From UHGV virus genome UHGV-1799913: a stretch of DNA of 13,009 nucleotides; one strand, 5' to 3'. The notes beneath the pieces were generated by a model, which was given only the letters and a program-made list of their open reading frames with translations, searched no databases and was not told where the DNA came from. Each line of letters begins with the position of its first letter. The first letter of the stretch is position 1. Positions 1 to 13,009 of this stretch are shown here, piece after piece. The position numbers and the translations under genes were made by a program. Source of the stretch: a virus.

Positions 1-165
1 CCCTGCGGGGATCAGGCGATCCAGTTCCGGCAGCAGCGAATATTTGCCGCCAGCCCATTTAAGGAACGGGCGCTGCCAAATTCGTGATGCTGGATTGTGT
101 GCGGGTGGCAGCTTAACCGCTTCATTGAATTGCTCAACGCAAACACTTACAAATCCGTAATTCAT
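1..165 (-). CDS. DNA adenine methyltransferase (Dam-like), N-terminal part; gene continues past the window start
   Basis: Minus-strand translation from ATG at 165-163 gives MNYGFVSVCVEQFNEAVKLPPAHNPASRIWQRPFLKWAGGKYSLLPELDRLIPAG. RPFLKWAGGKY matches the conserved N-terminal motif of Dam-family N6-adenine methyltransferases (E. coli Dam: RAFLKWAGGKY). Absent from the ORF track because it is truncated by the window edge. Start overlaps the downstream stop (ATGA). Confidence 0.7.
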   Translation of the reverse strand, partial: MNYGFVSVCVEQFNEAVKLPPAHNPASRIWQRPFLKWAGGKYSLLPELDRLIPAG

Positions 166-320
166 GCTGCCACCTGCTTTTCGTTAAGTTCTTCAGCCAG
201 TCGTTGCGCCTTCAGTGGGTTGGTAACGACATCACCCCACGGCAGCAACCATCCGTTTTTCTCTTTGAGCCAGGGAAGGCGCAGTGTGCCAACCCTGATG
301 TCGTCGTGAGCGTGAGTCAT
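162..320 (-). CDS. hypothetical small phage protein (52 aa)
   Basis: Minus-strand ORF MTHAHDDIRVGTLRLPWLKEKNGWLLPWGDVVTNPLKAQRLAEELNEKQVAA, below the 60-aa track cutoff. GGAG about 8 nt upstream of the ATG; ATGA stop/start overlaps with both neighbours. No family recognised. Confidence 0.4.
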   Translation of the reverse strand: MTHAHDDIRVGTLRLPWLKEKNGWLLPWGDVVTNPLKAQRLAEELNEKQVAA

Positions 321-790
321 AGGATGGACTCCATTTCGTCGATGTAGAGGCCCTGAGCAATCAGGCGGCTACGGCGGGCGGCACGGGCTATGCACTCCTG
401 CCGTCTACCTTCCTGCGATTGCTCAATGGCGCGCCGGGTGAACAGGCGCGATTTGCCCTGCGGCGTCACAACCTTCGGCTTCGTGACCAGGTCGAAAGTC
501 CGGTCGCAGATGCCGTCCCCGTTGATCCACTTTTCCGACTCAACGATCTGCGCTATCTGTCCGGAGCCGCGGGTAATACCGTTGGCTACCCGGTTAAACT
601 CGATGAGCGTTACGCCAAACTTCTCAGCGATTTCGCTGCCGGTTACCGGGCGGCCGCGCGTCTGAATCGTCCAGATAACGCGCAGTTTTGAAACACTCTT
701 TTTGTGGAATCTGATCCAGATAACGCGCTCACGAAGGCCGGAGAATTGCCCGGTGCGCCCTGGCCTGCGGTAAAATGGTGTGCGTTTCAT
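317..790 (-). CDS. hypothetical phage early protein (157 aa), basic, possibly nucleic-acid binding
   Basis: ORF-track entry 317..790; start overlaps the upstream exonuclease stop (ATGA) and the stop overlaps the next start. Arg/Lys-rich termini. No family recognised from sequence alone. Confidence 0.5.
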   Translation of the reverse strand: MKRTPFYRRPGRTGQFSGLRERVIWIRFHKKSVSKLRVIWTIQTRGRPVTGSEIAEKFGVTLIEFNRVANGITRGSGQIAQIVESEKWINGDGICDRTFDLVTKPKVVTPQGKSRLFTRRAIEQSQEGRRQECIARAARRSRLIAQGLYIDEMESIL

Positions 791-1404
791 GCTGCACGCT
801 CTGTGATTTTCTGAATTTCCGATTCCAGATCTGCAAGGAAGCTCTTAACCTCAGATTCGATTTCGCGCGCCAGCTCTTCATCGAAATGAATCCGCTTCTT
901 GAAATAGGCGAGGTCAGGCGGCAGGCGATCATCGAAACTAACGAAATCACACCATTTCCGCCCGGTGCACATCATCTGTGCATGCATTTGCAGCATGTAC
1001 TGGCGCTTTGGCTCACCAGTTTTCAGCGTTTCAAGATGGGTCCAGGTGTTGGGGCATTTGATTTCGATAAGCCCGTCGTCGTTGACAAGTCCGTCCGGGC
1101 TGGCTGCGAATCCGGGTATGGTTGGGTGATCGATGAGCCCAACTTCAGTGATTGCCGCATTGAACTCATTCAGCGCGTACATTTCGCGTGCCACTGGCTC
1201 AAGTTCAGTGCCGCGCATCATCGCGGCATTCGAAAACCCTTCCTCCAGCTTCCCGGTCAGCCGTTGGCAAATCAGCTCGGCCATGTAGTTCTGGCGGCTG
1301 GTGGAGTAGCCCGACTTAGTCCGGGCCATGACATCAGCCAGGCGACTGGCTGTGACCTTGCCGCAGCGCGCAGCAAACCATTCAGGGGTGCGTTGCTCTA
1401 TCAT
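787..1404 (-). CDS. YqaJ-type viral recombinase exonuclease (PD-(D/E)XK; functional analogue of lambda Exo)
   Basis: N-terminus MIEQRTPEWFAARCGKVTASRL is typical of the YqaJ exonuclease family and sits immediately downstream of the Bet gene as an exo/bet pair. GGAGG 5 nt before the ATG at 1404; ATGA overlap with the bet stop. Confidence 0.8.
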   Translation of the reverse strand: MIEQRTPEWFAARCGKVTASRLADVMARTKSGYSTSRQNYMAELICQRLTGKLEEGFSNAAMMRGTELEPVAREMYALNEFNAAITEVGLIDHPTIPGFAASPDGLVNDDGLIEIKCPNTWTHLETLKTGEPKRQYMLQMHAQMMCTGRKWCDFVSFDDRLPPDLAYFKKRIHFDEELAREIESEVKSFLADLESEIQKITERAA

Positions 1405-2147
1405 TCAGCCTCCGTCTCTGCGACATTGACAGGTTCGGCGTTGTCGACAGCAAGACTCATGTCATACATGCGTCGTTTCTCAACTGCGCCGATCACCTGT
1501 TTCTCTTCGGCGCTCAGCGCCACCCAGAACTCCTGATACTTAACGGTTCCAAGGCGCGCGGCGGACTCACCTTTTGCGATCAGTTCCGGGCGGCGGCTAT
1601 CTGATTCATGGCCCGCATGAACCTCTGCCGTTGTTCCTTCAATTACTCGCTCTGCCTCATCCTGGTCGAAGATGCCAGCGAAACCAAAGGCCAGACGCGC
1701 GCACTGGATCAGCGTCTTGTGGCGAAGCATGCGGGTAGGGTGGGACTGCCATGGCTGAGTGTTGCGTTTGCACTCTCCCATGTACTCGGTGACGATGGTC
1801 GGGTGCTTACGGTCTTTGCGGTAAATCTTGCAGGTACACGCGCCTTCCTCCTTGTCGTAAGAGAACTCCATGCCGTCAAACTGAGGATGCTCGTTGATAA
1901 TGCGAGCCCATCCATCAACGCCGACGACCGGGACAATCCCGCCTTTATCTGGGAATGCGTAAATCTCTTTGGTCCATGGGTTCAGGCCGTACTGGTTGGC
2001 GACGATCAACAGGGCTGTAAACTGCTCGTCCGTGACGTTGCCACCTTTGAACGCTGTATTCTTCAGCGTATTCATCAGGTCTGTACCGGCATCCATGCCG
2101 AGGCGTGCGGCCAGTTTCCCGGCCATGGTGGAAAGTGCAGTACTCAT
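1401..2147 (-). CDS. bet: Bet / Red-beta single-strand annealing protein
   Basis: From the internal start, MSTALSTMAGKLAARLGMD...LLIVANQYGLNPWTKEIYAFPDK..IVPVVGVDGW.RIINE..QFDGM...CTC.IYRKDR.HP...TE.M.EC...PWQSHP.RMLRHK..IQCARLAFGFAGI.D.DEAER is near-collinear with lambda Bet as I recall it. Start set at ATG 2147 (GAGGGA RBS upstream) rather than the track start at 2162. Confidence 0.9.
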   Translation of the reverse strand: MSTALSTMAGKLAARLGMDAGTDLMNTLKNTAFKGGNVTDEQFTALLIVANQYGLNPWTKEIYAFPDKGGIVPVVGVDGWARIINEHPQFDGMEFSYDKEEGACTCKIYRKDRKHPTIVTEYMGECKRNTQPWQSHPTRMLRHKTLIQCARLAFGFAGIFDQDEAERVIEGTTAEVHAGHESDSRRPELIAKGESAARLGTVKYQEFWVALSAEEKQVIGAVEKRRMYDMSLAVDNAEPVNVAETEAE

Positions 2148-2165
2148 TGTTAAATCCCTCAAAAA

Positions 2166-2450
2166 TTAAAACGGGCAGCCGGTACGGTGTTCCCAGTCGT
2201 ATTCCGCCTGGGCGTAAGCAACTACCGAAATGAAATCGTTGTAGGCCTCGCCAGCTTTATCGCTGCGAAGCCCTTCGTATGGGCTGGAGTCTATCGGGAT
2301 CGTGAAGTGGAAGAGGCCGGACGGCTCTTTAGGCATCATGTCGATGATTTTCTGCGCCCGGTCGTCGATCCACTTCTCTTTCTCGTCGGTGATCTGCTGC
2401 TCAGCCCAGCGCCGATCTTCGATGCGGTCGTAAGTGAGGTATGCGTTCAT
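2166..2450 (-). CDS. gam: Gam-like protein (putative RecBCD inhibitor)
   Basis: Position immediately upstream of bet; N-terminus MNAYLTYDRIEDRRWAEQQITDEKEK resembles lambda Gam short form ([30 protein letters not shown], recalled). GAGG RBS before the ATG at 2450. Confidence 0.6.
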   Translation of the reverse strand: MNAYLTYDRIEDRRWAEQQITDEKEKWIDDRAQKIIDMMPKEPSGLFHFTIPIDSSPYEGLRSDKAGEAYNDFISVVAYAQAEYDWEHRTGCPF

Positions 2451-2457
2451 GGTTGCC

Positions 2458-3429
2458 TCAGTAATGAATTTTCGCGCAGGGGATCAGGTCATCTTTCAGA
2501 GCGGTAAGCACTTCGATAGCCTGCTCGCGGGTTAAGCTGGTTTGGCTGGTGAGCGCGTTAACGATGTTGGTGCCGACCGTCTTGCGGTGCTTAACGTCAG
2601 CTTCACGCTTTGCCTGCTCATCGGCGAGGCGCTTCTCTTCGGCCAGGCGGGCATCTTCGGCCTGTTTGGCCTTCAGGCGCTCGGCTTCAACCGCCGTGGC
2701 TTTTTCGCGTTCCGCCCGGGCTTCCGCTTCCTGCTTCTCGCGAGCTGCACACTGTTCCGCTTCGACGCGCTGGCGCTCCGCCAGTTCAGCGCGGGCTTTC
2801 TCTTCGGCTTCACGGCGCGCTGCGGCTTCAATCTCCGCTTTGTGCTTCGCTTCGGCATCGCGGCGGGCTTGTTCTGCCGCTTCCTGTTTCAGCCGCTCAT
2901 CACGTTCACGCTGAGCCTGTTCCGCCAGACGGCGCTGCTCTTCGCGGTCACGGTCAAAATCCTTGTTCATCAGTAGAGCCATTTCGTGGTCCGCTTCGAA
3001 CTTGGCAGCCAGCTCCTGATCGAACCTGATGTTCATCTCCAGCGCTTCGGCGTGCATCGCGTTCATGGCTTCTTCAGCCTTAATGCGTTCCTGCTCGGCT
3101 TCCCATTCGGTGAGTGGGCGGCGGGTCGCATCGCGCAGCTCGTCGCAGGCATCAACGAATCGCTTAATTTCGGCCTCAGCCGGACGCACAGCCTCTTTCA
3201 GGCGCTTCAGGTACTCACGGCCCGGCTTTTCGATTGCCGTCTTGCTGCGGGACACCTGCGCTGCCAGAGAGGCAACACGGTCACGGCCTTTCTTCGTGGA
3301 CAGGTCCGACACTTCGTTTACAGCCTGGCGGATTTGCTCAAGGTACGCGTCAAGGCCGCCCGCTACGTAAAGCACTGGGGCCTGTTCCGGCTTGATTTCG
3401 ATGACAGTTAAGTCCGTTACTTCGCTCAT
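2458..3429 (-). CDS. coiled-coil phage protein with a long ER/K-rich helical segment (possibly DUF1351-like)
   Basis: Track ORF 2458..3543. Start moved to the internal ATG at 3429 (MSEVTDLTVIEIK...), which is preceded by AGGAGA and avoids overlap with the upstream gene. Contains roughly 120 aa of almost pure E/R/K/A/Q (EEQRRLAEQAQRERDERLKQEAAEQARRDAEAKHKAEIEAAARREAEEKARAELAERQRVEAE...). Confidence 0.6.
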   Translation of the reverse strand: MSEVTDLTVIEIKPEQAPVLYVAGGLDAYLEQIRQAVNEVSDLSTKKGRDRVASLAAQVSRSKTAIEKPGREYLKRLKEAVRPAEAEIKRFVDACDELRDATRRPLTEWEAEQERIKAEEAMNAMHAEALEMNIRFDQELAAKFEADHEMALLMNKDFDRDREEQRRLAEQAQRERDERLKQEAAEQARRDAEAKHKAEIEAAARREAEEKARAELAERQRVEAEQCAAREKQEAEARAEREKATAVEAERLKAKQAEDARLAEEKRLADEQAKREADVKHRKTVGTNIVNALTSQTSLTREQAIEVLTALKDDLIPCAKIHY

Positions 3430-3499
3430 GGTTTCTCCTGAAATTTGGATGTGCAGATCCCGCCCGCGTAATGCCAGGCCGAACGGTTGAATAGGGTGG

Positions 3500-3709
3500 T
3501 TAGTGCTGGATAGGGTTGCCGTGACCGTCAAGAAGGACGTCAATCACGCAGTCACTGAGTCGGATTATTTCTGCGTCAGTGTGCAGGTATACCCATTTGC
3601 GCTCCTGAATGACTGCTGAGACGCGATATGTGCGGCCTTCATGCAATGCCATCATGCCGGGCGTGACGCACTGGCGAATGAGCGGGGTGGTGCCGTAGTG
3701 GTTGATCAT
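3500..3709 (-). CDS. hypothetical small phage protein (69 aa)
   Basis: Track ORF; GAGGTGAAGG RBS before the ATG at 3709; ATGA overlap with the upstream gene stop. No family recognised. Confidence 0.5.
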   Translation of the reverse strand: MINHYGTTPLIRQCVTPGMMALHEGRTYRVSAVIQERKWVYLHTDAEIIRLSDCVIDVLLDGHGNPIQH

Positions 3710-3864
3710 GCCTTCACCTCAACCTGTTCCAGGAGGCCAGCGATATTCATCTGTTGGCGGTTCATCGTCAGCTTTTCACGCGGGTTAGATACCGACGTCA
3801 GCTGCCACTCGTTATCGTTGAGCTTTTTGGCGGTGTACTGCTTGCCGTTGTGGGTGACTGTCAT
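3706..3864 (-). CDS. hypothetical small phage protein (52 aa)
   Basis: Internal start of track ORF 3706..3906: ATG at 3864 (MTVTHNGKQYTAKKLNDNEWQL...) preceded by AAGGTGGTG, 1 nt after the stop of the upstream membrane-protein gene. Confidence 0.45.
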   Translation of the reverse strand: MTVTHNGKQYTAKKLNDNEWQLTSVSNPREKLTMNRQQMNIAGLLEQVEVKA

Positions 3865-3865
3865 C

Positions 3866-4075
3866 TCACACCACCTTGAATAAGAACCAGCCCATACCGC
3901 ACACAATCAGGCCCACAATGGTTATTGCGGAAGACATGCGTACATGGTCAATGGCTAGTTTTGAAAGTGGCTGGCGATGTTCTTTTTTCGTCAGCGAGTT
4001 GATTGCTATGCCGAGCAGAAACGTCCCGACAAACCATAATGCGTATATCTTTAAGCCCAACTCCAAATCACTCAT
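3866..4075 (-). CDS. small membrane protein (69 aa, two predicted TM helices)
   Basis: Track ORF MSDLELGLKIYALWFVGTFLLGIAINSL...ITIVGLIVCGMGWFLFKVV has two hydrophobic stretches; AAGAGGA RBS before the ATG at 4075. Sits where lambda carries kil/cIII/sieB-type small genes. Confidence 0.55.
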   Translation of the reverse strand: MSDLELGLKIYALWFVGTFLLGIAINSLTKKEHRQPLSKLAIDHVRMSSAITIVGLIVCGMGWFLFKVV

Positions 4076-4206
4076 AAATCCTCTTGGCCTTATCGCGGCG
4101 AACGGAACGGTTAATACAAGACTTCAACGCATTTATTCAGTGTTTCAATGGGCGGTGGATGGCCGCCGGTTTTCATAACTAAGCCGCCTCGGTGAAGCGA
4201 CTGAGG

Positions 4207-4232
4207 TATGAAAAAGCCCTCCGGAGAGGGCT
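4207..4232 (-). terminator. putative rho-independent terminator (minus strand)
   Basis: Minus strand reads GCCCTC-TCCG-GAGGGC followed by TTTTT (plus 4211-4231), directly after the stop of the 50-aa peptide gene. Confidence 0.5.
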
Positions 4233-4383
4233 ATGTGTTTCGCTTAATCATTGGGTAAGCCAGAGCAATTACACCTGCCACTAATACCCCGTCAGCCAGC
4301 ATCGACATCAACTTCCCGGTGAAATCGACAGCAATCACCAGGAAGAGGAGGACGCCGATAATCAACCAGCGCAATTTATCCAT
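4231..4383 (-). CDS. small hydrophobic membrane peptide (50 aa)
   Basis: Hand-translated minus-strand ORF MDKLRWLIIGVLLFLVIAVDFTGKLMSMLADGVLVAGVIALAYPMIKRNT, below the track cutoff. Its ATG overlaps the TerB-like stop (ATGA); strongly hydrophobic; followed by a terminator. Confidence 0.4.
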   Translation of the reverse strand: MDKLRWLIIGVLLFLVIAVDFTGKLMSMLADGVLVAGVIALAYPMIKRNT

Positions 4384-4808
4384 CAGATATAAGCGTCGAG
4401 TGATAACTGAAGAGCCTGAGCGATTTTCTTCAGCTGTTTTTCTTCGTCTTCGCCGATGCCGTCGTTATCGGCTACGTCAAGGCACAGGCAGAGCACATCA
4501 ACTGCGTCTGGAGTATCTGCCACATCTGCAAGTTCGCGCATTGCCTGGGCATTAGCAGAGCGAGGGGACGCTTCGTACTGTGCGCGAATGTTGCTGCTCA
4601 TGATGGCGATCTCACCTGCGAAAGCAGAGAACGCTGGTTTTGCCTGAATGGTTTTCTCCAGCGTTGCAATTTCTGACGCATCACAAGTACCGTCTGCATA
4701 AGCGATCGAGTAACAGCCCCACACCGTTGCTTCAACTGCGTCGCGGTTTTCCATCTTCTTCACTTCGACGATCGCCTTGCGTGCTTTTTTCTTAAACAGT
4801 CCGAACAT
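4383..4808 (-). CDS. TerB-family (tellurite-resistance TerB-like) protein, 141 aa
   Basis: Two ADG/acidic repeats (AYADGTCDASEIATLEK and DVADNDGIGEDEEKQLKKIAQAL) and an MFGLFKK N-terminus resemble E. coli TerB (MSFFDKVK...VASDGVSSEEK...AKSDGNFDDDEK, recalled). AAGAGGG RBS before the ATG at 4808. First sizeable gene downstream of the presumed pL. Confidence 0.55.
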   Translation of the reverse strand: MFGLFKKKARKAIVEVKKMENRDAVEATVWGCYSIAYADGTCDASEIATLEKTIQAKPAFSAFAGEIAIMSSNIRAQYEASPRSANAQAMRELADVADTPDAVDVLCLCLDVADNDGIGEDEEKQLKKIAQALQLSLDAYI

Positions 4809-5035
4809 TTGACTACCCTCTTGGTTTAAGCCATCAACTTGATGGCGACATTTGACTTACCGTCAGCCCCTCGTAAAGAGCTGCTGGTAAATCGTGTTGC
4901 CATAATTGCCGCTCCTCCTGAGCCCGCCTATGGTCCGACGCATGGTTTACTGTCGCGCCGTTCGACTGACCGAATCTCCACTTCGCTGCTGGCTAACTTC
5001 GCTCAGCTGTCGATGTTTCGTTTCGATGGGGTGAA

Positions 5036-5110
5036 TTTAGCGTGATGCTAAATTATGCGCAATAGCAAAATGCTAAATTGTTGAATGGTTTTATTTAGCG
5101 TATTGATTAA
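5036..5110. promoter_or_regulatory. OL-like operator cluster / presumed pL region
   Basis: Three 17-mers matching TTTAGC-N5-GCTAAA: 5036-5052 tttagcgtgatgctaaa (perfect half-sites), 5061-5077 aatagcaaaatgctaaa, 5094-5110 tttagcgtattgattaa. Lies between the cI terminator and the leftward operon. Confidence 0.45.
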
Positions 5111-5149
5111 TAAGCGATTAAAAATTTACAGCGAAGGAATTCGGGACGT

Positions 5150-5173
5150 AAAAAAGCCCGCGCGATGGCGGGC
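5150..5173 (-). terminator. putative rho-independent terminator downstream of the repressor gene
   Basis: Minus strand: GCCCGC-CATCGC-GCGGGC stem-loop followed by TTTTTT (plus A-run 5150-5155), about 20 nt after the cI stop. Confidence 0.5.
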
Positions 5174-5193
5174 TTGAGGGGTTTTGCGTGAGG

Positions 5194-5871
5194 TTATGGG
5201 ATGTTTAGTATTTTGGCATCAACCACAACGCCGATGATTTTGCAGTTTCCATTAATTTCTAGCATTGGATATGCGGGGTTAAGGGGCTTTAGGAAGCGTC
5301 TGCCGGCATCGATTACAAGCTTCTTAAAGGTCGCTTCGTTATCGCCTTCTAGCTTCGCGACAACCAGCTTTCCGTTGCGCGGCTCGACTTCAGGATCAAC
5401 AAGTATCGCTGCTCCCTCGGGTATGCTCAGTCCAGCCGGGGAGGTCATAGAATCCCCTTTAACGTCCAGCCAGAATGAATCTTCTGAGCAGTCAACAGTC
5501 GTGTCATACCAGCGATCTATCGCTCTTCGGTGATAAGGTTCTACAGCTTCCATCCATTGCCCCGCGCTTACCCAGCTGATTACAGGATAACTTCCTTTTG
5601 TCTCGTTCAGTCCTCGAAATGAAACGTTCGAAGGTTCTTCACTGGCGTGTAAAACATCCATCCAGCCAAAAGGCAGATCAAGCGCAGTTTCAATTTTGCG
5701 AGCCATCTTATCGCCGATATTGCGATGAGGGTTTGGTCCCAGTAGCTGGCTAAGCGCAGCCGGACTTGTCTCGATGAGCTCGGCAAACTGCGCTTTGGTC
5801 ATTCCAGACTCGTGCTGACGCTTCTCGTACAGCGCTTCCAGGTTGGCTTTTCTGATTTCTTTATTTTCCAT
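5194..5871 (-). CDS. cI: CI-like prophage repressor, LexA/S24 peptidase family (HTH plus autocleavage domain)
   Basis: From ATG 5871: MENKEIRKANLEALYEKRQHESGMTKAQFAELIETSPAALSQLLG (HTH), an Ala-Gly linker site (WVSAGQW), and a C-terminal S24 domain with GDSM (Ser) and a downstream Lys (VVAKLEG). Divergent to the cro-like gene and flanked by operator-like repeats. The track start at 5988 is a TTG inside the operator region and is rejected. Confidence 0.8.
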   Translation of the reverse strand: MENKEIRKANLEALYEKRQHESGMTKAQFAELIETSPAALSQLLGPNPHRNIGDKMARKIETALDLPFGWMDVLHASEEPSNVSFRGLNETKGSYPVISWVSAGQWMEAVEPYHRRAIDRWYDTTVDCSEDSFWLDVKGDSMTSPAGLSIPEGAAILVDPEVEPRNGKLVVAKLEGDNEATFKKLVIDAGRRFLKPLNPAYPMLEINGNCKIIGVVVDAKILNIP

Positions 5872-5889
5872 ACCTGCATTGTTACTGCT

Positions 5890-5955
5890 TTTAGCAAAAT
5901 GATAAATGTGCAAATTGCTAAATGATGCTTGCGTAGTATTTAGCATAACGCTAAA
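5890..5955. promoter_or_regulatory. OR-like operator cluster with divergent promoters (pRM/pR equivalents)
   Basis: 17-mers 5939-5955 tttagcataacgctaaa (perfect inverted repeat TTTAGC-N5-GCTAAA) and 5890-5906 tttagcaaaatgataaa, plus a weaker one around 5906-5922, in the 116-bp gap between the divergent cI and cro-like starts. Confidence 0.5.
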
Positions 5956-5987
5956 CTCCAAATCAAACGACTCACCCGGAGACACCA

Positions 5988-6221
5988 ATGAGCACTGAAC
6001 TACACCGCTGGCGCAAGGCCGCCACTACCGACGAATGGGCGCAGCTCGCAAAGTTGGCTAACACGACGCCAGGTTACCTGGACCAGATCGCCTACGGAAA
6101 TCGCCGGGCATCTCCAGAAATGGCATCTGCTATCGAGAAAGGCACGAAGAATTTTCACCGCCAGGCTCCGGTCCTAAAAGAAAGCCTGGTATTCGCATCG
6201 CCGCGTGATACTGCGGCCTAA
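5988..6221 (+). CDS. Cro-like small HTH DNA-binding protein (first gene of the rightward operon)
   Basis: 77 aa; GGAG 6 nt before the ATG; HTH-like segment DEWAQLAKLANTTPGYLDQIAYGNRRASPEMASAIEKGT; divergent from cI across the operator region. Confidence 0.6.
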   Translation: MSTELHRWRKAATTDEWAQLAKLANTTPGYLDQIAYGNRRASPEMASAIEKGTKNFHRQAPVLKESLVFASPRDTAA

Positions 6222-6238
6222 CCACGAAAGGGAAAGCA

Positions 6239-6784
6239 ATGCATTCACTTGCGTATCAACAAGGTAACAAATTTTCGCCAACGGCGATGATTTACCAGAA
6301 TCGCCGGGAGCCTGATTCCACGGCGTTAAACATCGATGGGATCCGCGCAGCTGTTCGCGCCTGGGCAGCTGATTGCCGAAGCCGTGAATTTGTCGCCGCG
6401 CTGATCGTGGAAGAGTGGCGGGCGTCCGGCGGAACCGGTCTGGATATCCCGACTGACTCGCACCGCCAGATGCAGAAAGTGTTTCGATGGATTGATGGTG
6501 ATACCGAATACGCCGCCAACAACATTCGCCAGCTGGCCCCGGCAATCATGTCGGTCCTGCCGCTGGAGTACCGAAACCGTCTGGCGCCGCAGAACGACAC
6601 GATGTCGCTGATCGCCTCTGCGATGAAAGAGTGTGCCGAGGCTAAACAGGCCGTGCTGCTGGACGCTCCAGAGCATCAGAAGCTCAAAGAGGTAAGCGAG
6701 GGTATAGCGTCGCTGTTCCGCCTCATGCCGGAGCAGGTAGGAACGCTGATGACGATGGTTACATCGATGCTGGGGGTTATATGA
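6239..6784 (+). CDS. YdaT-like protein (Rac/CP-933P YdaT family, reported as a CII functional analogue)
   Basis: EEWRASGGTGLDIP...HRQMQKVFRWIDGDTEYAANNIRQLAPAIMSVLPLEYRNRLA parallels E. coli YdaT as I recall it (EEYLRQGGGELPLV...YHRWLKGETKTQREKIQKLIPAILAILPRELRHRL). Lies in the cII position after the cro-like gene. Confidence 0.6.
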   Translation: MHSLAYQQGNKFSPTAMIYQNRREPDSTALNIDGIRAAVRAWAADCRSREFVAALIVEEWRASGGTGLDIPTDSHRQMQKVFRWIDGDTEYAANNIRQLAPAIMSVLPLEYRNRLAPQNDTMSLIASAMKECAEAKQAVLLDAPEHQKLKEVSEGIASLFRLMPEQVGTLMTMVTSMLGVI

Positions 6785-6869
6785 GAGGCACAAGAAAAGA
6801 AAAAGCCCTTGAAGCGGTAACTTCAAAGGCCCTTATCACACTGTGTTACGCCAAGTAACGGGAGTAAGT

Positions 6870-7778
6870 ATGTCAAACACCGCTGAAATAATCAATTTCC
6901 CAAATAAAACCGAACAACCGGGAGGTCGTATGGCCGACCTGTCGAACGGGTATACCAAGGTCGCTAACGAGATCCAACAGCTTAAGCCTCGCCTGAGACT
7001 GTCAGGCCGGGAATGGCAATGTTTTGAGGCGGTGATCTGGCTTACCTACGGCTGGAACAAGAAACAGGACCGCGTGACAAATACGGTTATTGCCGAGCTT
7101 ACGGGCCTGAGCGATACGCATGTATCGGACGCGCTTAAGTCTCTCGCAGAACGCAAAATCATCTTTTCACAGAAGCAGGGCATGATGAAAATCGTCGGTG
7201 TAAACACTGACCTTTCAGCATGGATTTTAGACAAACCGGAAACGGGAAGAAAATTCCCGAAAACGGGAAAATCCTTCCCGAAATCAGGAATAACCTTCCC
7301 GAAAACGGTAGACACCCAATACAAGAACAAGAACAGTATTAAAAGATCTTCGTCCGAGAATTCTGACGAATCCTCTGACGCACGTCTGAAGAAATTTTTA
7401 TCAACTCATCCTGAAGCTGCGGTCTACACACCATCCGGTGCGAAGTGGGGCTCTGCTGAAGACCTCGAGACAGCTAAGTGGATTTCCTCCAGGGTGAAGC
7501 TGATTAACCCAACCTGCAAAGCCCCGGACATGACCTCCTGGTCTAACACTGTTCGCCTGATGCGCCAGATAGACAACCGGTCGCACCAGGACATCTGCGC
7601 GCTGTATGACTGGGCTAGCAAACACCACTTCTGGCAGACCAACATCCTGAGTCCCGAAAGCCTGCGTAAGCAGTGGGACAAGCTGACAATGCAGCGTAAC
7701 GCCGGAGGTGAGCAGCGCGCTGTCAAGCCAGATCTGGACTTCAACAACACTGACTGGGCCTATGGGGTGATCCGATGA
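6870..7778 (+). CDS. O: replication initiator protein O-like
   Basis: Start at ATG 6870 (GGAG RBS) inside track ORF 6843..7778. N-terminus MSNTAEIINF..., the LTYGWNK motif and the C-terminal DLDFNNTDWAYGVI resemble lambda O (MTNTAKILNF..., ...TDW.YG at the C-terminus, recalled). Contains the iteron array; stop overlaps the P start (ATGA). Confidence 0.85.
   Translation: MSNTAEIINFPNKTEQPGGRMADLSNGYTKVANEIQQLKPRLRLSGREWQCFEAVIWLTYGWNKKQDRVTNTVIAELTGLSDTHVSDALKSLAERKIIFSQKQGMMKIVGVNTDLSAWILDKPETGRKFPKTGKSFPKSGITFPKTVDTQYKNKNSIKRSSSENSDESSDARLKKFLSTHPEAAVYTPSGAKWGSAEDLETAKWISSRVKLINPTCKAPDMTSWSNTVRLMRQIDNRSHQDICALYDWASKHHFWQTNILSPESLRKQWDKLTMQRNAGGEQRAVKPDLDFNNTDWAYGVIR
7233..7312. repeat. origin-of-replication iterons (ori-lambda-like) inside the O-like gene
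   Basis: Four repeats of a dyad-containing about 17-bp unit at exact 21-bp spacing (starts 7233, 7254, 7275, 7296): aaaccggaaacgggaag / ttcccgaaaacgggaaa / ttcccgaaatcaggaat / ttcccgaaaacggta. Encodes the in-frame peptide repeat FPKTGK/FPKSG/FPKT, as iterons do in lambda O. Confidence 0.7.
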
Positions 7779-8464
7779 AATCTCTTGCAGAGCAGATGCG
7801 TAACCACGACCGCGAGCAGATGAGCCGCATGGCCCATAACCTGCCAGAGCAGTACCAGGAGTGCGCGCCGGTCGAGCAGGTGGCGCAGGTATTCAACAAG
7901 CTGTTCAACGAGCTGCGCGCCGCGTTCCCGGCCAGCATGGCGAACTTCCGCACCCAGGAAGACCTGAACGAATTCCGCCGTCAGTGGCTGCTGGCGTTTC
8001 AGGAGAACGGGATCCACACCATGGCTCAGGTCGATGCCGGCATGCGCATTGCCCGCCGCCAGGAGCGCCCATTCCTGCCGTCGCCGGGCCAGTTCGTCGC
8101 CTGGTGCAAGCAGAGCGGCGGCGCGCTGGGCGTCAACGTTGACCAGGTGATCGCCGAATACTGGGACTGGCGTAACCGCTCGTTCGAATTCATCTCCAGC
8201 GAGCAATTTCCATGGTCGCAGCCGGTCATGTACCACATTTGCGTAGAATTGCGCCACCGCAGCACCGAGCGCCAGTTAACGCATGGTGAACTGGCACGCG
8301 AGGCAGGCGATCTGCTGGACATGTGGGAAAGGCGCGTCACCGAGGGTAAGCCAGTGCCGCCGGTACGCCGGGCTATTGCCGCACCAGCTGCCGAGCAAGG
8401 GCCGACGCCGATCCAGCTGCTGCTGGCCAAGTACAACCGCAACAAGTCGAACGGGATGGTGTGA
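7775..8464 (+). CDS. P: replication protein P-like (DnaB helicase loader)
   Basis: MKSLAEQMRNHDREQMSRMAHNLPEQY...VEQVAQ...FPAS.AN...E.NE.RRQWLLAFQENGI.TMAQV.AGMRIARRQERPFLPSPGQFVAWCKQ is near-collinear with the lambda P N-terminal half (MKNIAAQMVNFDREQMRRIANNMPEQY...RPFLPSPGQFVAWC, recalled). ATGA overlap with the O stop. Confidence 0.9.
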   Translation: MKSLAEQMRNHDREQMSRMAHNLPEQYQECAPVEQVAQVFNKLFNELRAAFPASMANFRTQEDLNEFRRQWLLAFQENGIHTMAQVDAGMRIARRQERPFLPSPGQFVAWCKQSGGALGVNVDQVIAEYWDWRNRSFEFISSEQFPWSQPVMYHICVELRHRSTERQLTHGELAREAGDLLDMWERRVTEGKPVPPVRRAIAAPAAEQGPTPIQLLLAKYNRNKSNGMV

Positions 8465-8465
8465 C

Positions 8466-8810
8466 ATGAACATAACAATCCGTGAGCAGGTGCTGGCAGC
8501 CCTGCGCAACAACCCAGGGTTGAACAACGCCAAACTGGCAGGGCTTATCGGCATGGACACCAAAAAGATATCCGGAACGGTGAGCACGCTGCTGGCAGAC
8601 GGCCTGATCCGCTGCGAAGGAAAATACGGCCAGCGCCTTTACAGCCTGACCAGCTACGGAATGCGCTTCGCCCCTGACACGATACCTGGCATGAAGCAGG
8701 GTAAGTCGAAGTTAATTCAGCGGACGGACACAAACGTGATCTGCCAGGAGTGCCGCAACAGCGCGGCTATGAAGCGTGTATTGATGGTTTGGGGGAGGGT
8801 AGGGGTATGA
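8466..8810 (+). CDS. small winged-helix-type DNA-binding protein (114 aa), nin-region gene
   Basis: Start at ATG 8466 (MNITIREQVLAALRNNPGLNNAKLAGLIGMDTKKISGTVSTLLADGLIRCEG...) inside track ORF 8283..8810. The helix-turn-wing pattern resembles MarR-like winged-helix proteins; the start sits 2 nt after the P stop. Confidence 0.5.
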   Translation: MNITIREQVLAALRNNPGLNNAKLAGLIGMDTKKISGTVSTLLADGLIRCEGKYGQRLYSLTSYGMRFAPDTIPGMKQGKSKLIQRTDTNVICQECRNSAAMKRVLMVWGRVGV

Positions 8811-9403
8811 AATTATTTGAGATGGAAGGTTTTCTGCGTGGCAAGTGCATTCCACGCGATCTGAAGGTTAACGAAACCAACGCCGAGTATCTTGTGCGTA
8901 AATTTGCTGAAGCGGAGGCAAAGTGCGCGGCGCTGGCAGCGGAGAATGCGGAGCTGAAACACGCAATGGCCGTAACTCTTGAGCATGTGTCGGTCACGGA
9001 TGCAGGGCAGGCTGGTGTTGCTGCAATGATTATCAACGATGCCCTACACCACAGCGAAACCCCAGCCACCGACGCTTTCCTTGCTGAAGTACTGGCGCAG
9101 GGGGTGAAATCGCCATCCAATGCCGTTCAGTCAGTAATTGCAGAGCGTCAACGCCATCAATCAGCTGAGGGATGGACGCCTGAGCATGATGACCAGTACA
9201 GCAAATCGCAGTTACTGTGGGCATCCTCATGCTACGTACTGAATGCCATCCATCCATTTAACCGCATTCCATTTGACTGGCCGTGGACACCAGAATGGTG
9301 GAAGCCGACAAATCCACGCCGTGACCTTGTGAAAGCTGGCGCACTTATTCTGGCTGAACTTGAAAGAATTGACCGCGCCGCTGGCATCGGTAAGGGGGAA
9401 TGA
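8807..9403 (+). CDS. phage protein with N-terminal coiled coil and a C-terminal domain resembling DUF550 / dATP-dGTP pyrophosphohydrolase-like proteins
   Basis: Start at ATG 8807 (MKLFEMEGFLRG...) after a G-rich RBS, overlapping the upstream stop. The C-terminal WTPEHDDQYSKSQLLWASSCYVLNAIHPFNRIPFDWPWTPEWW is reminiscent of the DUF550 family common in enterobacterial prophage nin regions; family assignment is from memory only. Confidence 0.45.
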   Translation: MKLFEMEGFLRGKCIPRDLKVNETNAEYLVRKFAEAEAKCAALAAENAELKHAMAVTLEHVSVTDAGQAGVAAMIINDALHHSETPATDAFLAEVLAQGVKSPSNAVQSVIAERQRHQSAEGWTPEHDDQYSKSQLLWASSCYVLNAIHPFNRIPFDWPWTPEWWKPTNPRRDLVKAGALILAELERIDRAAGIGKGE

Positions 9404-9648
9404 TGGGTAAGGTAACTTTTGTCGTCGATTTCAAGGATGGTGAAGAGCCAGCGGTATCAGCGGCAACCGAGATTCTGGGTGGTCGTCTTTCTTCTGTTTT
9501 ATGGGCCGACTATCGCGATGATTTTTTCACCGAAGAAGAGGTCGATATGGTTCGTTCTGCGTTCGATGATGTGGCGCTGACTACTTCTGAAGATGAGGAA
9601 GAATCACAAGCTGAAATCATCAAGAAAATGGAGCTTATGACGCTATGA
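9400..9648 (+). CDS. small acidic phage protein (82 aa)
   Basis: Track ORF; many D/E residues (TSEDEEESQAEIIKK, FTEEEVDMVRSAFDD); ATGA overlap with both neighbours. Confidence 0.5.
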   Translation: MMGKVTFVVDFKDGEEPAVSAATEILGGRLSSVLWADYRDDFFTEEEVDMVRSAFDDVALTTSEDEEESQAEIIKKMELMTL

Positions 9649-9923
9649 CCACTATTACCAGAGAGCTTATCGCCGCATATCTTAACGGTGAAGTTAAAAC
9701 GCTCACTAACAGCGAACAGAAAGAGCTGGCGCGTATCGCGCTGGCATCGCTTGAGGATGAAATAAAACTACTCCCTGTAGGGGTTATGAGCGAGTCAGCC
9801 TTTTATAGGCTTGAACGCAGCGAGTCACGTTTTATTGCGCTGTGGCCTCGTCCTGGTATCTTTTTGCCGCGCCCGCGTCCAGATGATGGCGTTATCGTTT
9901 ATGCAAAGGTTGAGGGGGCGTGA
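9645..9923 (+). CDS. hypothetical phage protein (92 aa)
   Basis: Track ORF; translationally coupled (ATGA) to the flanking genes. No family recognised. Confidence 0.5.
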   Translation: MTTITRELIAAYLNGEVKTLTNSEQKELARIALASLEDEIKLLPVGVMSESAFYRLERSESRFIALWPRPGIFLPRPRPDDGVIVYAKVEGA

Positions 9924-10231
9924 TGGCTAGCCTACTCAACTTCCTCGGCATAGATTCCCGGCGTAGCAGCGTGACTCTCGTTGAATACAAATATGACCCA
10001 GAGGCGCGAGAGAAGGTCTCAAAGTATCTCGTCAGGCATACGTCCAGCTTTCGCGGAACAACGCTGGAGCAATACGTCACCGTAGAGCGCGACCGTTATG
10101 GCGCATTCAAACCTGTAGTCGCGCTGGACGATTTCCCCAGCGGTATGAGTGACAGGGAGTCAATGCTGAAACTGGCCGATTGGCTGCATCGCCTTGGCGT
10201 AGCGATTGAAGATGAATGGAGTACACCATGA
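9920..10231 (+). CDS. hypothetical phage protein (103 aa)
   Basis: Track ORF; translationally coupled (ATGA) to the flanking genes. No family recognised. Confidence 0.5.
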   Translation: MMASLLNFLGIDSRRSSVTLVEYKYDPEAREKVSKYLVRHTSSFRGTTLEQYVTVERDRYGAFKPVVALDDFPSGMSDRESMLKLADWLHRLGVAIEDEWSTP

Positions 10232-10359
10232 AAACTAACAACCACCCGGCGCACGGCCCTGTATCACTCGATCGCCTGCACCAGATAAGCGAAATACTCA
10301 GCAAAGCAGCAGCGCAAAGCGACGGCGGTAATCTCGGCTACGCAATGGCAGGTGATTGA
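10228..10359 (+). CDS. hypothetical small protein (43 aa), last gene of the coupled chain
   Basis: Hand-translated MKTNNHPAHGPVSLDRLHQISEILSKAAAQSDGGNLGYAMAGD. ATG overlaps the upstream stop (ATGA). Below the track cutoff; no other support. Confidence 0.3.
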   Translation: MKTNNHPAHGPVSLDRLHQISEILSKAAAQSDGGNLGYAMAGD

Positions 10360-10420
10360 TGAAGTTTTAGCAGGTAGGAATGCGGTGCGGGTAGAGCCAA
10401 ATTTGATGTATAAAACGAAG

Positions 10421-10447
10421 AAGGGGCCGACATTTGTCGACCCCTTA
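10421..10447 (-). terminator. stem-loop terminator candidate at the 3' end of the tRNA-like element
   Basis: Minus strand AAGGGGTCGACAAATGTCGGCCCCTT (10-bp stem with one mismatch) followed by a T-rich tract CTTCGTTTTAT. It could also act on plus-strand read-through from the upstream operon. Confidence 0.4.
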
Positions 10448-10539
10448 AATAGGGTGCGGGGTTCGAACCCGCGGTACGGGTTTATAGCCCGTACGCCTCA
10501 TTATCAGTGAGGTGCCATCAACCACTCGGCCAACCCTCC
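10448..10539 (-). tRNA. tRNA-like element, type II (long variable arm), anticodon GAU by fold; imperfect acceptor stem, no encoded CCA; possible pseudogene or non-canonical phage tRNA
   Basis: Minus strand GGAGGGT-TG-GCC-GAGTGGTTGAT-GGC-A-CCTCA-CTGATAA-TGAGG-CGTACGGGCTATAAACCCGTACC-GCGGG-TTCGAAC-CCCGC-ACCCTAT. Cloverleaf has a canonical T-arm (GGTTCGAAC) and Ser/Leu-like D-loop (GCCGAGTGGTTGA), a 7-bp variable-arm hairpin, and a 5-bp anticodon stem with loop CU-GAU-AA. The acceptor has a G2-A71 mismatch and a G1-U72 pair. Confidence 0.5.
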
Positions 10540-10629
10540 GTTGTACCTTGCAAGCAAGGGGTGAAAGAAATATAGCATTATGATTTAAAAAATAAAGTGA
10601 ATTATCATCGAATAACATTACCAAAAATA

Positions 10630-10680
10630 GCCATGACCACACTTTTCTTTTGTATAATCCCTCCCAAAGTATCGAGGGGG
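10630..10680 (+). promoter_or_regulatory. putative promoter (extended -10 TGTATAAT) with adjacent inverted repeat
   Basis: tgtataat at 10651-10658 followed directly by ccctccc-N-gaggggg (10659-10680), then AAGGAGAAG RBS and the GTG start at 10702. Confidence 0.35.
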
Positions 10681-10701
10681 ACTCATCAAGGAGAAGATAA
10701 A

Positions 10702-11043
10702 GTGAAATATTTGGCGATCACGTTGTTAGGAATTGGCTTTCTTATGCCCCATGCCGTTGAAGCAAAGGAATATGTATGCTCTGGAATAGCAAGGAGTATG
10801 ACCTCAAATGAAGTAAAATCCGGCGAAGTAAAGGCAAATATAACTGACATCGGAAATTCAATAACAGTTAACTTTGGGACCATTTCTTACACCACAAGCA
10901 AGATTAGGCCAGAAAAACCGGAAGGAAAGACATACCCATCTGGTGCGACTAAAGAGGGCAATATTATACAAAGACGTGGAGATGGTGATTACCGATTCTT
11001 TCAAATGTCTCAGGGTGATGTAGTGCAATTTACCTGCAAATAA
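10702..11043 (+). CDS. small secreted/periplasmic protein (113 aa) with Sec signal peptide; moron-type cargo gene
   Basis: GTG start at 10702 after AAGGAGAAG inside track ORF 10597..11043. N-terminus MKYLAITLLGIGFLMPHAVEA-KE has a hydrophobic core and an AxA cleavage motif. Mature protein has two Cys (YVCSG, FTCK). AT-rich codon usage by eye. Confidence 0.55.
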   Translation: MKYLAITLLGIGFLMPHAVEAKEYVCSGIARSMTSNEVKSGEVKANITDIGNSITVNFGTISYTTSKIRPEKPEGKTYPSGATKEGNIIQRRGDGDYRFFQMSQGDVVQFTCK

Positions 11044-11142
11044 AATTGAACGAATTTCAACCAGGTTAGGCGGTTTTTATTTTTGGCTGTGCCCCCGTTC
11101 GCTGTAGCACTGGTGAGGGCTAACCTGCCGGAACTATGCCAG

Positions 11143-11198
11143 TCGAAACAAATCGCGGCCTGACCTATAATCCCCTCCATAACTCAAGGGGATTTTTT
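11143..11198 (+). promoter_or_regulatory. putative promoter (-10 TATAAT at 11166-11171) with 7-bp inverted repeat sequestering the SD
   Basis: tataat followed by ATCCCCT-N10-AGGGGAT (11170-11193), then TTTTTT and the ATG at 11199. The AGGGGA arm is also the only SD-like element for the downstream gene. Confidence 0.35.
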
Positions 11199-11381
11199 AT
11201 GTCAAACGAAGAAATGACACCTGCCGAAAAATACAAAGCGGCGAGGAAGCGATATAAAAAACACTGGCTTCAATCCGATATAGCAAACGCTAAGCGCTTT
11301 GAGGCTGATGATGTGGCCCCTGTAGATGGTTACAGGTCTCCTTACGAAACGAGGAAAAAAAGAGGGAGAACAGCAGATTAA
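11199..11381 (+). CDS. small basic protein (60 aa), first gene of the moron cassette
   Basis: Start at ATG 11199 inside track ORF 11136..11381: [25 protein letters not shown]...RKKRGRTAD, Lys/Arg-rich. Stop overlaps the next start (TAATG). Confidence 0.45.
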
Positions 11382-11635
11382 TGTCACATTTTAATATCGC
11401 AGAAAAATCGAAAGAAGAGCAGGACAAGGCTAACGTGGACCTGGCTGCCAGTGGCGTAGCGTACAAAGAGCGCCTGAACATGCCGGTTATCGCTGAGGTG
11501 GTGATGCGTGAGCAGCCCGAGCATTTGCGTGATTACTTCCTTGAGCGTCTGAAGTTTTATCGCGAGAAGTCGATAGATTTACCAAGGGCATCCGATCCGC
11601 GGTACATGGAAATGGCTGATTCTAATAAAAAATAA
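11381..11635 (+). CDS. hypothetical protein (84 aa)
   Basis: Track ORF; start coupled to the upstream stop. No family recognised. Confidence 0.5.
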
Positions 11636-11686
11636 GCCCTAACGTGTTGATGACCTTATCAGACCTAAACAGGAGGTTTTTCTAAA

Positions 11687-12226
11687 GTGATTAATATCAT
11701 TGTTGATTCCAATGCTTGGAATTTTTTACATGTGAGTGGGATCTCCTTAAGCAACGAGCTTCTTAGCGATTATAACTTTCAGATAACATTAGAGGTGTCT
11801 CGTGAATTGCAGGAGTTAGTGGGCAAGGAAGGGAAGGAAGCTCTTTATGAATTCTTTGTAAGTGAGACTCAGTCGCTTGAAGAGCCCTTATGCTATTTTG
11901 GTTTTTACAATGAGTCAGTGCCTGCTGATGAACAGCGGTTTGGTGGATTTGGTGTTGGCGGGTTCGCATCTGTTCATCAAGATGATTATTTTCAGAAAAC
12001 ATTCCGCCAAATAAAATCATCAAAGCGTGGTATTTATTATGGCAATGAAGCTGACATGCTGATCGGGTCAAGAGGAATTGGGAACACTTTCATACTAACA
12101 GAAGATAATAATAAGTCAGGCCCGATGAAAGAGGCTGAGAACACTATCTTTGTTTCAAGAAAATTTCCTATGACTGTGGAGCAGTTTAAGGAATATCTTG
12201 ATCTTGAAATCTCAAAAACTCTTTAG
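11687..12226 (+). CDS. hypothetical protein (179 aa) with possible PIN-like nuclease motifs
   Basis: GTG start 10 nt after AGGAGG. N-terminal hydrophobic strand with Asp (IIVDSNAW), a downstream Glu-containing helix (TLEVSRELQEL), and a C-terminal NEADMLIGSRGIGNTFILTED segment recalling the VapC/PIN pattern (D...E...D...T-x-D). Assignment is motif-level inference only. AT-rich by eye. Confidence 0.5.
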   Translation: MINIIVDSNAWNFLHVSGISLSNELLSDYNFQITLEVSRELQELVGKEGKEALYEFFVSETQSLEEPLCYFGFYNESVPADEQRFGGFGVGGFASVHQDDYFQKTFRQIKSSKRGIYYGNEADMLIGSRGIGNTFILTEDNNKSGPMKEAENTIFVSRKFPMTVEQFKEYLDLEISKTL

Positions 12227-12302
12227 TTACTGCGCTTTGATTTTTCATAATCACTCCGCCATAATCATGTCATCGGAGCCTGAACAACTCCGGTGACTTC
12301 TT

Positions 12303-12326
12303 CGCATTTAAGGGGACTTAAATGCG
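12303..12326. repeat. perfect 10-bp inverted repeat with 4-nt loop
   Basis: cgcatttaag-ggga-cttaaatgcg (12303-12326), no T-tract on either side; lies at the junction between the AT-rich cassette and the NinB-like gene. Confidence 0.6.
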
Positions 12327-12413
12327 ACCACAATCTGAACTCATCGCCTTGTCACAGATGCAGACATGCACCTGCGATTTTCTGCATTCTGCGGTTTCCG
12401 TTAAGGAGGCCGT

Positions 12414-12869
12414 ATGACTCTGCCAGCAGACGGCATCAAACTCCATCGCGGCAACTTCGCGGCCATTGGCCAGCAGATTCAGCCATTGCTGGATGCCGGG
12501 CAATGCTTCCGCCTGCAAGTCAAACCGTGGCGCGAGAAGCGCAGCCTGTCGCAGAACGCGCTCAGCCACATGTGGTACACGGAAATTAGCGAGTACCTCA
12601 TCGCCCGCGGCAAGACCTTCGCTACGCCTGAGTGGGTCAAAGACGCGATGAAGCACACCTATCTCGGCTATGAGAGTAAAGACCGGGTAGACGTCGTGTC
12701 CGGAGAGGTGACCACAGTTCAATCTCTCCGCCATACCGCCGATCTGGAAACCGGCGAGATGTACATTTTCCTGTGCAAAGTCGAAGCCTGGGCGATGAAC
12801 ATCGGCTGTCACCTGACCATCCCGCAGAGCTGCGAGTACCAGCAGCTGCGCGATAAGCAGGAGGCCTGA
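12414..12869 (+). CDS. ninB: NinB-like recombination protein (Orf family)
   Basis: AAGGAGG RBS before the ATG. KPWREKRSLSQNALSHMWY resembles the NinB signature around RSLDQN..LW in lambda NinB (recalled). Position in the nin region downstream of P. Confidence 0.7.
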   Translation: MTLPADGIKLHRGNFAAIGQQIQPLLDAGQCFRLQVKPWREKRSLSQNALSHMWYTEISEYLIARGKTFATPEWVKDAMKHTYLGYESKDRVDVVSGEVTTVQSLRHTADLETGEMYIFLCKVEAWAMNIGCHLTIPQSCEYQQLRDKQEA

Positions 12870-13009
12870 TGTCTACTCCGCTTTCCCGCGTCATCACCAA
12901 CGAAATATTCCGCGTTCCGGCGCGCCGCCAGCGCAAGCCCGTGGTTAATCCGTCCGACATCCCGACACTGAAAGGCTACACCGCCCGCCTGGTGGATCAG
13001 AAATGGCTG
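12869..13009 (+). CDS. hypothetical nin-region protein, 5' part only (runs off the window end)
   Basis: ATG at 12869 overlaps the ninB stop (TGATG), with AGGAGG upstream; open frame MSTPLSRVITNEIFRVPARRQRKPVVNPSDIPTLKGYTARLVDQKWL continues to the window end. Confidence 0.5.
   Translation, partial: MSTPLSRVITNEIFRVPARRQRKPVVNPSDIPTLKGYTARLVDQKWL

Follow-up and report, generated by a model that had tools for sequence, protein, structure and literature searches.

The early region of a lambdoid prophage raises the question of why two of its genes should be preceded by the same arrangement of signals. In the stretch of DNA analyzed here (UHGV virus genome UHGV-1799913, 13,009 nucleotides; hereafter the window), the hexamer TATAAT occurs on the + strand only twice, and each copy runs directly into a hairpin built of a C-rich and a G-rich arm. 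One copy (site 1) lies ahead of the gene of a secreted protein, and the other (site 2) lies ahead of the gene of a basic protein of 60 residues (aa). An earlier note on this DNA had described the two sites as promoters that share either a common operator or an RNA hairpin sequestering the Shine-Dalgarno sequence (SD). The coordinates it gave are correct and the layout recurs in other phages; judged from sequence, the shared architecture is real and the two sites are homologous. We put at roughly 50% the probability that both are copies of a portable gene head, which would unite a promoter reduced to its -10 element, an SD that is masked on read-through RNA, and a linker for recombination.

Anatomy and occurrence of the proposed gene head

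The elements of the two sites and the genes that they precede are as follows.

10653..10658, + strand: -10 hexamer of site 1, TATAAT, with TG before it at 10651-52 (TGTATAAT = 10651-10658)
10658..10679, + strand: hairpin of site 1, TCCCTC (10658-63), loop CCAAAGTATC, GAGGGG (10674-79)
10689..10694, + strand: AAGGAG, the working SD of the secreted-protein gene, ahead of the GTG at 10702
10702..11043, + strand: gene of the 113-aa signal-peptide (secreted) protein, GTG start
11090..11163, + strand: relic 3′ end of an upstream gene (ending in AVALVRANLPELCQSKQIAA), stop codon TGA at 11161-63
11166..11171, + strand: -10 hexamer of site 2, TATAAT
11169..11194, + strand: hairpin of site 2, AATCCCCT (11169-76) and AGGGGATT (11187-94), loop CCATAACTCA
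11193..11201, + strand: run of six T (11193-98), then ATG; spacer between SD and start codon
11199..11381, + strand: gene of the 60-aa basic protein (phrog_16632), ATG at 11199
11381..11635, + strand: phage theta gene (HolE/HOT-like, PF06440), its start overlapping the stop of the 60-aa gene

At site 2, the stem has 8 bp around a loop of 10 nt (z = -3.3), and none of 200 shuffled sequences is as stable. The 5′ arm comprises the 3′ half of the -10 hexamer and the discriminator, and the 3′ arm is the sole SD of the 60-aa gene. The earlier note had rightly singled out this G-rich arm as the only SD-like element and the six T that follow it. The predicted transcription start, A11179, falls within the loop and leaves the 5′ arm upstream of +1, which is the geometry of SD masking. 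It is possible that the T run doubles as the U-tract of a terminator. An intrinsic terminator would be expected to have a GC-rich stem of at least 5 bp and a loop of 3-8 nt; the hairpin of site 2, with 8 bp but 10 nt, was not called as one. Compared with related phages, a G-to-A change at 11186 has enlarged this loop to 10 nt and made the stem weaker, at -10.1 kcal/mol versus about -14.5 kcal/mol. Site 2 is also the top sigma-70-like match of the window (10/12), reading TCGAAA-17-TATAAT with a -35 score of 4/6 and a 17-bp spacer; TCGAAA, at 11143-48, falls inside the end of the relic gene.

Site 1 departs from this plan in several respects. An inverted repeat is present, as the earlier note had claimed, but the arms it wrote out are not exact complements; the real pairing is that of (T)CCCTC with GAGGG(G), 5-6 bp around a 10-nt loop. 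The hairpin is followed by ACTCATC and has no U-run, no -35 match was found (best score 1/6), and the predicted start is A10666 or C10665. The SD is not part of the 3′ arm here, since the working SD lies at 10689-94. By its sequence, site 1 derives from a second allele of the head (allele 2, described below), of which it is a degraded copy. In four other contexts, homologues of the secreted-protein gene are likewise preceded by the hexamer (4/4) and mostly by a hairpin (3/4). Two contigs, L252 and L253, have ATGGAG where the window has AAGGAG, and there the SD and ATG of the head open a small open reading frame (mini-ORF) of 5 codons. In the window, this ATG has turned into AAG, creating the SD AAGGAG. 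Because the ATG of the head was lost in this way and the gene uses AAGGAG instead, the G-rich arm of site 1 is, on the sequence comparison, a vestigial SD. The mini-ORFs themselves (at about 1150-1200 in L252 and L253; compare window 10680-10704) encode MENIN and MGTIK, and their TGA overlaps the TTG/GTG start of the secreted-protein gene.

A search of the window with TATAATCCCYTCC, allowing up to 2 mismatches, returns 2 matches versus 0.27 expected, and 7 of 200 shuffled sequences also reach 2. What decides against chance is the recurrence of the layout in many unrelated contexts: the search for further motif copies, which the earlier note had proposed, yields only the two sites within the window and many heads in other viral contigs. 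The canonical head reads TATAAT-CCCCTC-variable loop-GAGGGG-(A/G)TTTTT-ATG and measures about 35-40 nt. Among 44 loci with homologues of the 60-aa gene from IMG/VR (L008-L050 included), TATAAT/TACAAT-CCCCTC-loop-GAGGGG-(A/G)TTTT(T)-ATG precedes the gene at 42, and a degraded head at L008 brings the recognizable heads to 43/44. Upstream of the hexamer, the sequences of different cases are unrelated. Phage theta genes have a head directly before them in about half of the distinct upstream regions; those without a directly preceding head are translationally coupled to the preceding ORF. Heads also precede genes of 169, 164, 82, 86, 187, and 420 aa, and sometimes stand alone. A pattern scan finds the head in at least 120 viral contigs, with 50 non-redundant upstream contexts and one or two copies per genome (two in 25 kb of this prophage). 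Allele 2, TGTATAAT-CCCTCTCAA-AGCA-TYGAGGGGG-ATTCATC-ATG, stands mostly before theta.

The association of the parts does not depend on searching with the hexamer. In 545 kb of loci fetched without a DNA pattern, all 25 distinct GAGGGG-T run-ATG starts have a -10 element plus a C-run. A search for the hairpin, U-run, and ATG alone (CCCCTC-N5-10-GAGGGGATTTTTATG) finds exactly TATAAT just 5′ in 30 of 38 distinct contexts, and TACAAT or CATAAT in 2 further ones. Of 80 theta homologues from GTDB species genomes, 72 have ordinary -35/-10 promoters without a head, consistent with these being chromosomal holE genes, and were used as the negative control; 3/80 carry a head (L281, L282, and L285). The theta locus of the Shiga toxin-producing E. 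coli-type prophage GB089 also has no head, its upstream region holding a terminator plus TATGAT instead. Short-query BLAST of heads against phage and E. coli collections recovers near-identical copies only; the variable loop makes such a search insensitive. At gathering as well as relaxed thresholds, Rfam has no family at site 1 or site 2, and we did not find the head motif described in the searchable literature. One further regularity concerns the coding sequence: in 51 of 63 distinct instances (heads in L132-L251), the ATG of the head is followed by a TCN codon for Ser, across unrelated families (MSNEE.., MSQWN.., MSGWD.., and MSANF..). The conserved block, or a recombination joint, may thus reach ATGTC.

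Putative promoter, hairpin, and Shine-Dalgarno sequence

The earlier note's view that the sites are promoters is plausible, as the hexamers behave like genuine -10 elements. In an alignment of 38 distinct heads, conservation sets in abruptly at the hexamer. Positions 2, 4, and 6 are invariant, position 1 is constant in 37/38, and the changes are otherwise confined to positions 3 and 5 (TACAAT and TATACT). This pattern is, as far as sequence can tell, the signature of a sigma-70 -10 element, and the canonical stem does not account for it at positions 1-3, which lie outside. Furthermore, 83 of 87 distinct instances have an A placed 7 or 8 nt past the hexamer, corresponding to A10666 and A11179 in the window; from this spacing, the predicted +1 is the first or second base of the loop. 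At L260, L261, and L007, the head sits directly behind a textbook terminator, and a promoter would therefore be needed there.

The hairpin is conserved as a pairing rather than as a loop sequence. Counted on the stated structure, 87% of the cells in the 38-sequence alignment are paired, versus no more than 71% in controls with a slid partner, and 6 cells have changed on both sides, a number reached in 1 of 500 shuffles. RNAalifold returned no consensus structure from the same alignment, probably because the two alleles are paired one column apart and the loops are of unequal length. The 87 distinct instances have 46 different loops of 5-10 nt. Variant arms are complementary to each other (ACCTCT/AGAGGT in L127, GCTCC/GGAGC in L007a, and CCCTCGA/TCGAGGG in L005), and the CCAGT/ACTGG stem of L254 is complementary even though its right arm has ceased to be an SD. 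In the canonical allele, the stem measures 9 bp (-14 to -15 kcal/mol) and leads into AUUUUUAU, and the loops of the relatives of site 2 span 5-8 nt. Of two canonical heads submitted to terminator calling, L003 is terminator-like and L004 is not called. A U-tract of at least 5 T in 8 nt is present in 59 of 63 distinct canonical heads with ATG; allele 2 (ATTCATC) has none. Some heads are fully palindromic (TATAATCCCCTC-loop-GAGGGGATTATA) and carry a consensus -10 on both strands (L140 7531-7560, L157, L193, L197, L243, and L253). The hairpin of L253 has 18 bp and -26.6 kcal/mol, and the L140 copy, the only one of these whose flanks were examined, is adjoined by convergent ORFs.

From this anatomy, conservation, co-occurrence, and complementarity we infer promoter activity, a start site, termination, and masking, and propose the following mechanism. 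The head would carry a -10 hexamer without a -35 of its own, a pyrimidine discriminator and then the start A, an SD (GAGGGG) complementary to the discriminator and the last three bases of the -10, and a short U-rich spacer leading to ATG. Polymerase starting at the head would produce a leader of about 20 nt whose first base lies in the loop. Since the 5′ arm consists of the last three -10 bases and the discriminator, all upstream of the start, this transcript could not fold the hairpin; its SD would be free and translation could proceed, giving low, autonomous, moron-like expression, for example in a lysogen. RNA arriving from upstream, be it from the pR operon or from a neighboring cassette, would contain both arms and form a hairpin of -10 to -15 kcal/mol that hides the SD. 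In the allele with a U-run (site 2), the hairpin may in addition act on read-through RNA as an attenuating intrinsic terminator. Site 1 would be a decayed allele 2, with its SD and ATG overtaken when the secreted-protein gene was joined. The SD-sequestering hairpin suggested by the earlier note would thus apply to site 2 and to read-through RNA only; it fails for self-initiated RNA, which starts in the loop, and for site 1, where AAGGAG is used.

Several results weigh against this mechanism. Across the 50 non-redundant contexts, the best -35 score is no better than background (2.54/6 versus 2.42), and only 3/50 have an extended -10 (TGn); with no conserved -35, any promoter would be -10-only and may be weak or inactive. 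Palindromic heads put TATAAT on both strands, in L140 between convergent ORFs, where a promoter role makes little sense. The fold of site 1 gains nothing over shuffled sequence (z about 0), and covariation is thin because the arms are so highly conserved. With neither allele 2 nor site 1 followed by a U-run, termination cannot be what all copies have in common. Finally, no terminator-like site was found between the end of theta at 11635 and the next gene, and the unit is therefore not a complete moron. The absence of a conserved -35 or extended -10 and palindromic copies such as that between the convergent ORFs of L140 would be expected of an intercistronic element that works on RNA only and contains no promoter, namely a terminator or attenuator, or a coupling hairpin melted by the ribosome at the upstream stop. 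In 12 of 18 traceable contexts the upstream ORF does stop within 5 nt of the hexamer (the ORF was recovered in only 18/49), the U-run is retained in L161 and L213 despite a separate SD downstream, and the canonical head of L003 is called terminator-like. TATAAT would then be kept for another reason, for example as a sigma-70-dependent pause site aiding the hairpin. An RNA-level element of this kind could also coexist with the promoter. Such an element leaves unexplained, however, both the A at +7/+8 and a hexamer whose nearly invariant position 1 and invariant position 2 lie outside the stem and whose changes are of the -10 type. It also sits poorly with heads directly behind a strong terminator, where little read-through RNA is to be expected, with an allele 2 that has no U-run, and with site 2 itself, where the preceding gene is only a relic in the window and would supply no ribosome for coupling. 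We consider an exclusively RNA-level function rather unlikely.

The arms bear on two further explanations. As a DNA operator through which one phage regulator governs both cargo genes, the inverted repeat would account for the strong conservation of the CCCCTC/GAGGGG arms and for their overlap with the predicted start, and the 60-aa basic protein, whose gene nearly always lies behind a head, would be the candidate regulator. This common operator, as the earlier note had it, is contradicted by half sites that are fixed neither in spacing (5-10 nt, with 46 loops in 87 instances) nor in sequence, the arms being replaced by unrelated complementary pairs, and by heads that precede theta in phages without an adjoining 60-aa gene. 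Moreover, the conservation of the right arm follows from its role as SD. We regard an operator as highly improbable. Alternatively, the complementarity could be a by-product, with a C/T-rich discriminator and a G-rich SD each selected separately. A half-swap folding test, in itself weakly informative, agrees with this in that most pyrimidine left arms find a partner in the G-rich right arms, and the covariation counts are small. The pairing nevertheless continues past the SD core to take in AAT/ATT in the -10 and spacer, L254 retains its stem without an SD in the right arm, L127 and L007a have changed both arms, and GAGGGG-T run-ATG never occurs without the left arm (25/25). Independent selection of the two arms accordingly strikes us as improbable.

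Mosaic joints and comparable systems

The gene head that we favor would also serve as a short patch of homology at which cargo genes are exchanged, a role suggested by its near identity in many phages. Homology breakpoints between related phages fall at the edges of the head, and both copies in the window coincide with such joints.

10651..10688, + strand: head 1 as mosaic joint, the overlap common to left-flank and right-flank relatives
11166..11202, + strand: head 2 as mosaic joint; left-flank relatives end at 11159 or 11202, right-flank relatives begin at 11161 or 11166

For head 1, L270 shares the left flank (window 10423-10688) and then continues into theta, and L252 and L253 share the right flank from 10651 onward. 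For head 2, E. coli TC24 and others match the window over 10300-11159, after which a dinI unit replaces the 60-aa gene and theta. What follows 11159 in TC24 (L006 1445-1725) is first a strong terminator, then a LexA box (TACTGTATAAAAACACAGTA), and then dinI; this unit is a classical SOS-regulated moron in the same slot.

The closest described system is that of the promoter early stem-loops (PeSLs) of T4-type phages, composite sigma-70 promoter/stem-loop cassettes upstream of ORFans (PMC2839356; PMC4122927), which provide an experimentally supported precedent by analogy. In some PeSL subclasses the stem extends over the -10, and in others it is placed after the -10 but ahead of the start site; promoter and terminator activity have been demonstrated, and the stem-loop stops transcription from upstream (PMC2839356). 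PeSLs are also homology linkers for the insertion, deletion, and replacement of genes (Arbiol et al. 2010, PMC2839356; Comeau et al. 2014, PMC4122927). The head resembles them in combining a sigma-70 element, here only the -10 half, with a stem-loop just upstream of accessory ORFs, and in coinciding with breakpoints (10651, 10688, 11159, 11161, 11166, and 11202). It differs in belonging to temperate lambdoid phages, in having one or two copies per genome compared with about 50 PeSLs (hyperplastic regions), and in lacking the conserved -35 and AT-rich upstream (UP) part of what in PeSLs is a strong full promoter. The 3′ arm of the head is moreover an SD abutting ATG, so that translation would be affected as well. 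PeSL activities have been measured, whereas any promoter, terminator, or mini-circle role of the head is putative. We found no paper tying PeSLs to such a motif of lambdoid phages. Tentatively, with somewhat less than an even chance in our estimate, lambdoid phages of Escherichia, Klebsiella, Citrobacter, and Raoultella may possess a PeSL counterpart of their own, in which autonomous transcription, start-dependent translation, and a patch for shuffling nin-region cargo (theta, the 60-aa protein, secreted proteins, and others) are joined.

Three other systems share features with the head. Morons of lambdoid phages are reportedly the subject of work by Juhala/Hendrix from 2000. Like them, the unit at site 2 is an accessory gene that is present or absent among relatives, has an apparent promoter of its own, and is a candidate for prophage expression. 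Morons have their own downstream terminator and no conserved flanking sequences (PMC2839356, PMC3594210). By contrast, theta is followed by no terminator, and many phages have the flanking head in conserved form. As for transposons, Davis, Simons & Kleckner in 1985 and Schulz & Reznikoff in 1991 are said to have found that fold-back inhibition guards the transposase genes of IS10 and IS50 from outside transcription. The left end of IS200 has a terminator plus an SD-sequestering stem (PMC4513863). The likeness of these elements to the head is twofold: the 5′ arm of the SD-masking hairpin lies upstream of the gene's own start, such that only read-through RNA folds and is poorly translated, and a terminator guards against impinging transcription. 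They are transposon ends of unrelated sequence, however, and what has been demonstrated for them is suggested for the head by geometry only. Finally, the nin region of lambda has intrinsic terminators, tR2-tR4, between the replication genes and Q. The head has the same location, and its site 2 allele likewise shows a U-run behind a GC-rich stem. It differs in that its stem shares bases with a consensus -10 and with an SD, in the 10-nt loop seen in the window, and in the absence of a U-run from allele 2 and site 1.

Genomic setting and implications

A lambdoid prophage of E. coli (eg, that of strain EM18-18-42) matches the window at 100% identity. The genes of the window run from integrase through exo/bet/gam, a LexA-type repressor, and the replication genes O/P to a series of small genes, with Q just past the end. 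Both sites sit in the early region, within the nin-type stretch between the replication genes and Q. No family match was obtained for the 113-aa signal-peptide protein. The 60-aa protein is very basic, and its gene lies directly before theta in the window and in the annotated relatives examined; it may be a nucleic-acid binder or a partner of theta. The gene whose relic occupies 11090-11163 stops 2 nt before the hexamer in other phages. The counterpart in E. coli H6 carries the annotation DNA cytosine methyltransferase, and that in L140 is a theta-like ORF of 59 aa. Over the whole window (1-13009), there are fewer sigma-70-like promoter matches than in shuffled sequence (4 vs 9.0 +/- 2.9) and more terminator-like sites (24 vs 13.9 +/- 4.7).

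A further feature lies upstream of site 1 on the opposite strand.

10448-10539, - strand: tRNA-like gene of 92 nt, with its own terminator at 10446..10421 (-)

This gene has the long variable arm of a type II body, as in Leu, Ser, and Tyr tRNAs, yet an Ile anticodon, GAU; its relatives in other phages have GAU and, in one case, UAU. The acceptor stem is imperfect (G2.A71), CCA is not encoded, and the direction opposes that of the early operon. Synthetases of type II tRNAs mostly ignore the anticodon. Because these enzymes are largely anticodon-blind, the product could be a miscoding tRNA; otherwise, it could be a structure other than a tRNA. A sub-threshold Rfam match to isrK, an Hfq-binding small RNA of Gifsy-1, covers 10410-10494 (-), and with it the terminator and 3′ half of the tRNA-like gene in part; at 17 bits (E = 0.45), where the gathering score is 50, the match is probably due to chance.

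If the proposed gene head is real in function as well as in sequence, it would provide a testable rule for the expression of prophage accessory genes independently of the lytic program, and a means of keeping these genes quiet on read-through RNA. The homologue of the DNA polymerase III theta subunit, as one such gene, could then affect proofreading in the host. The head would also represent a compact natural part, with promoter, insulator, and ribosome-binding site in about 35 nt, and an annotation marker for prophage cargo. Finally, it would explain the sharp mosaicism of lambdoid nin regions at gene boundaries through short conserved linkers, as in Botstein's modular theory, the alternative being illegitimate recombination and selection only.

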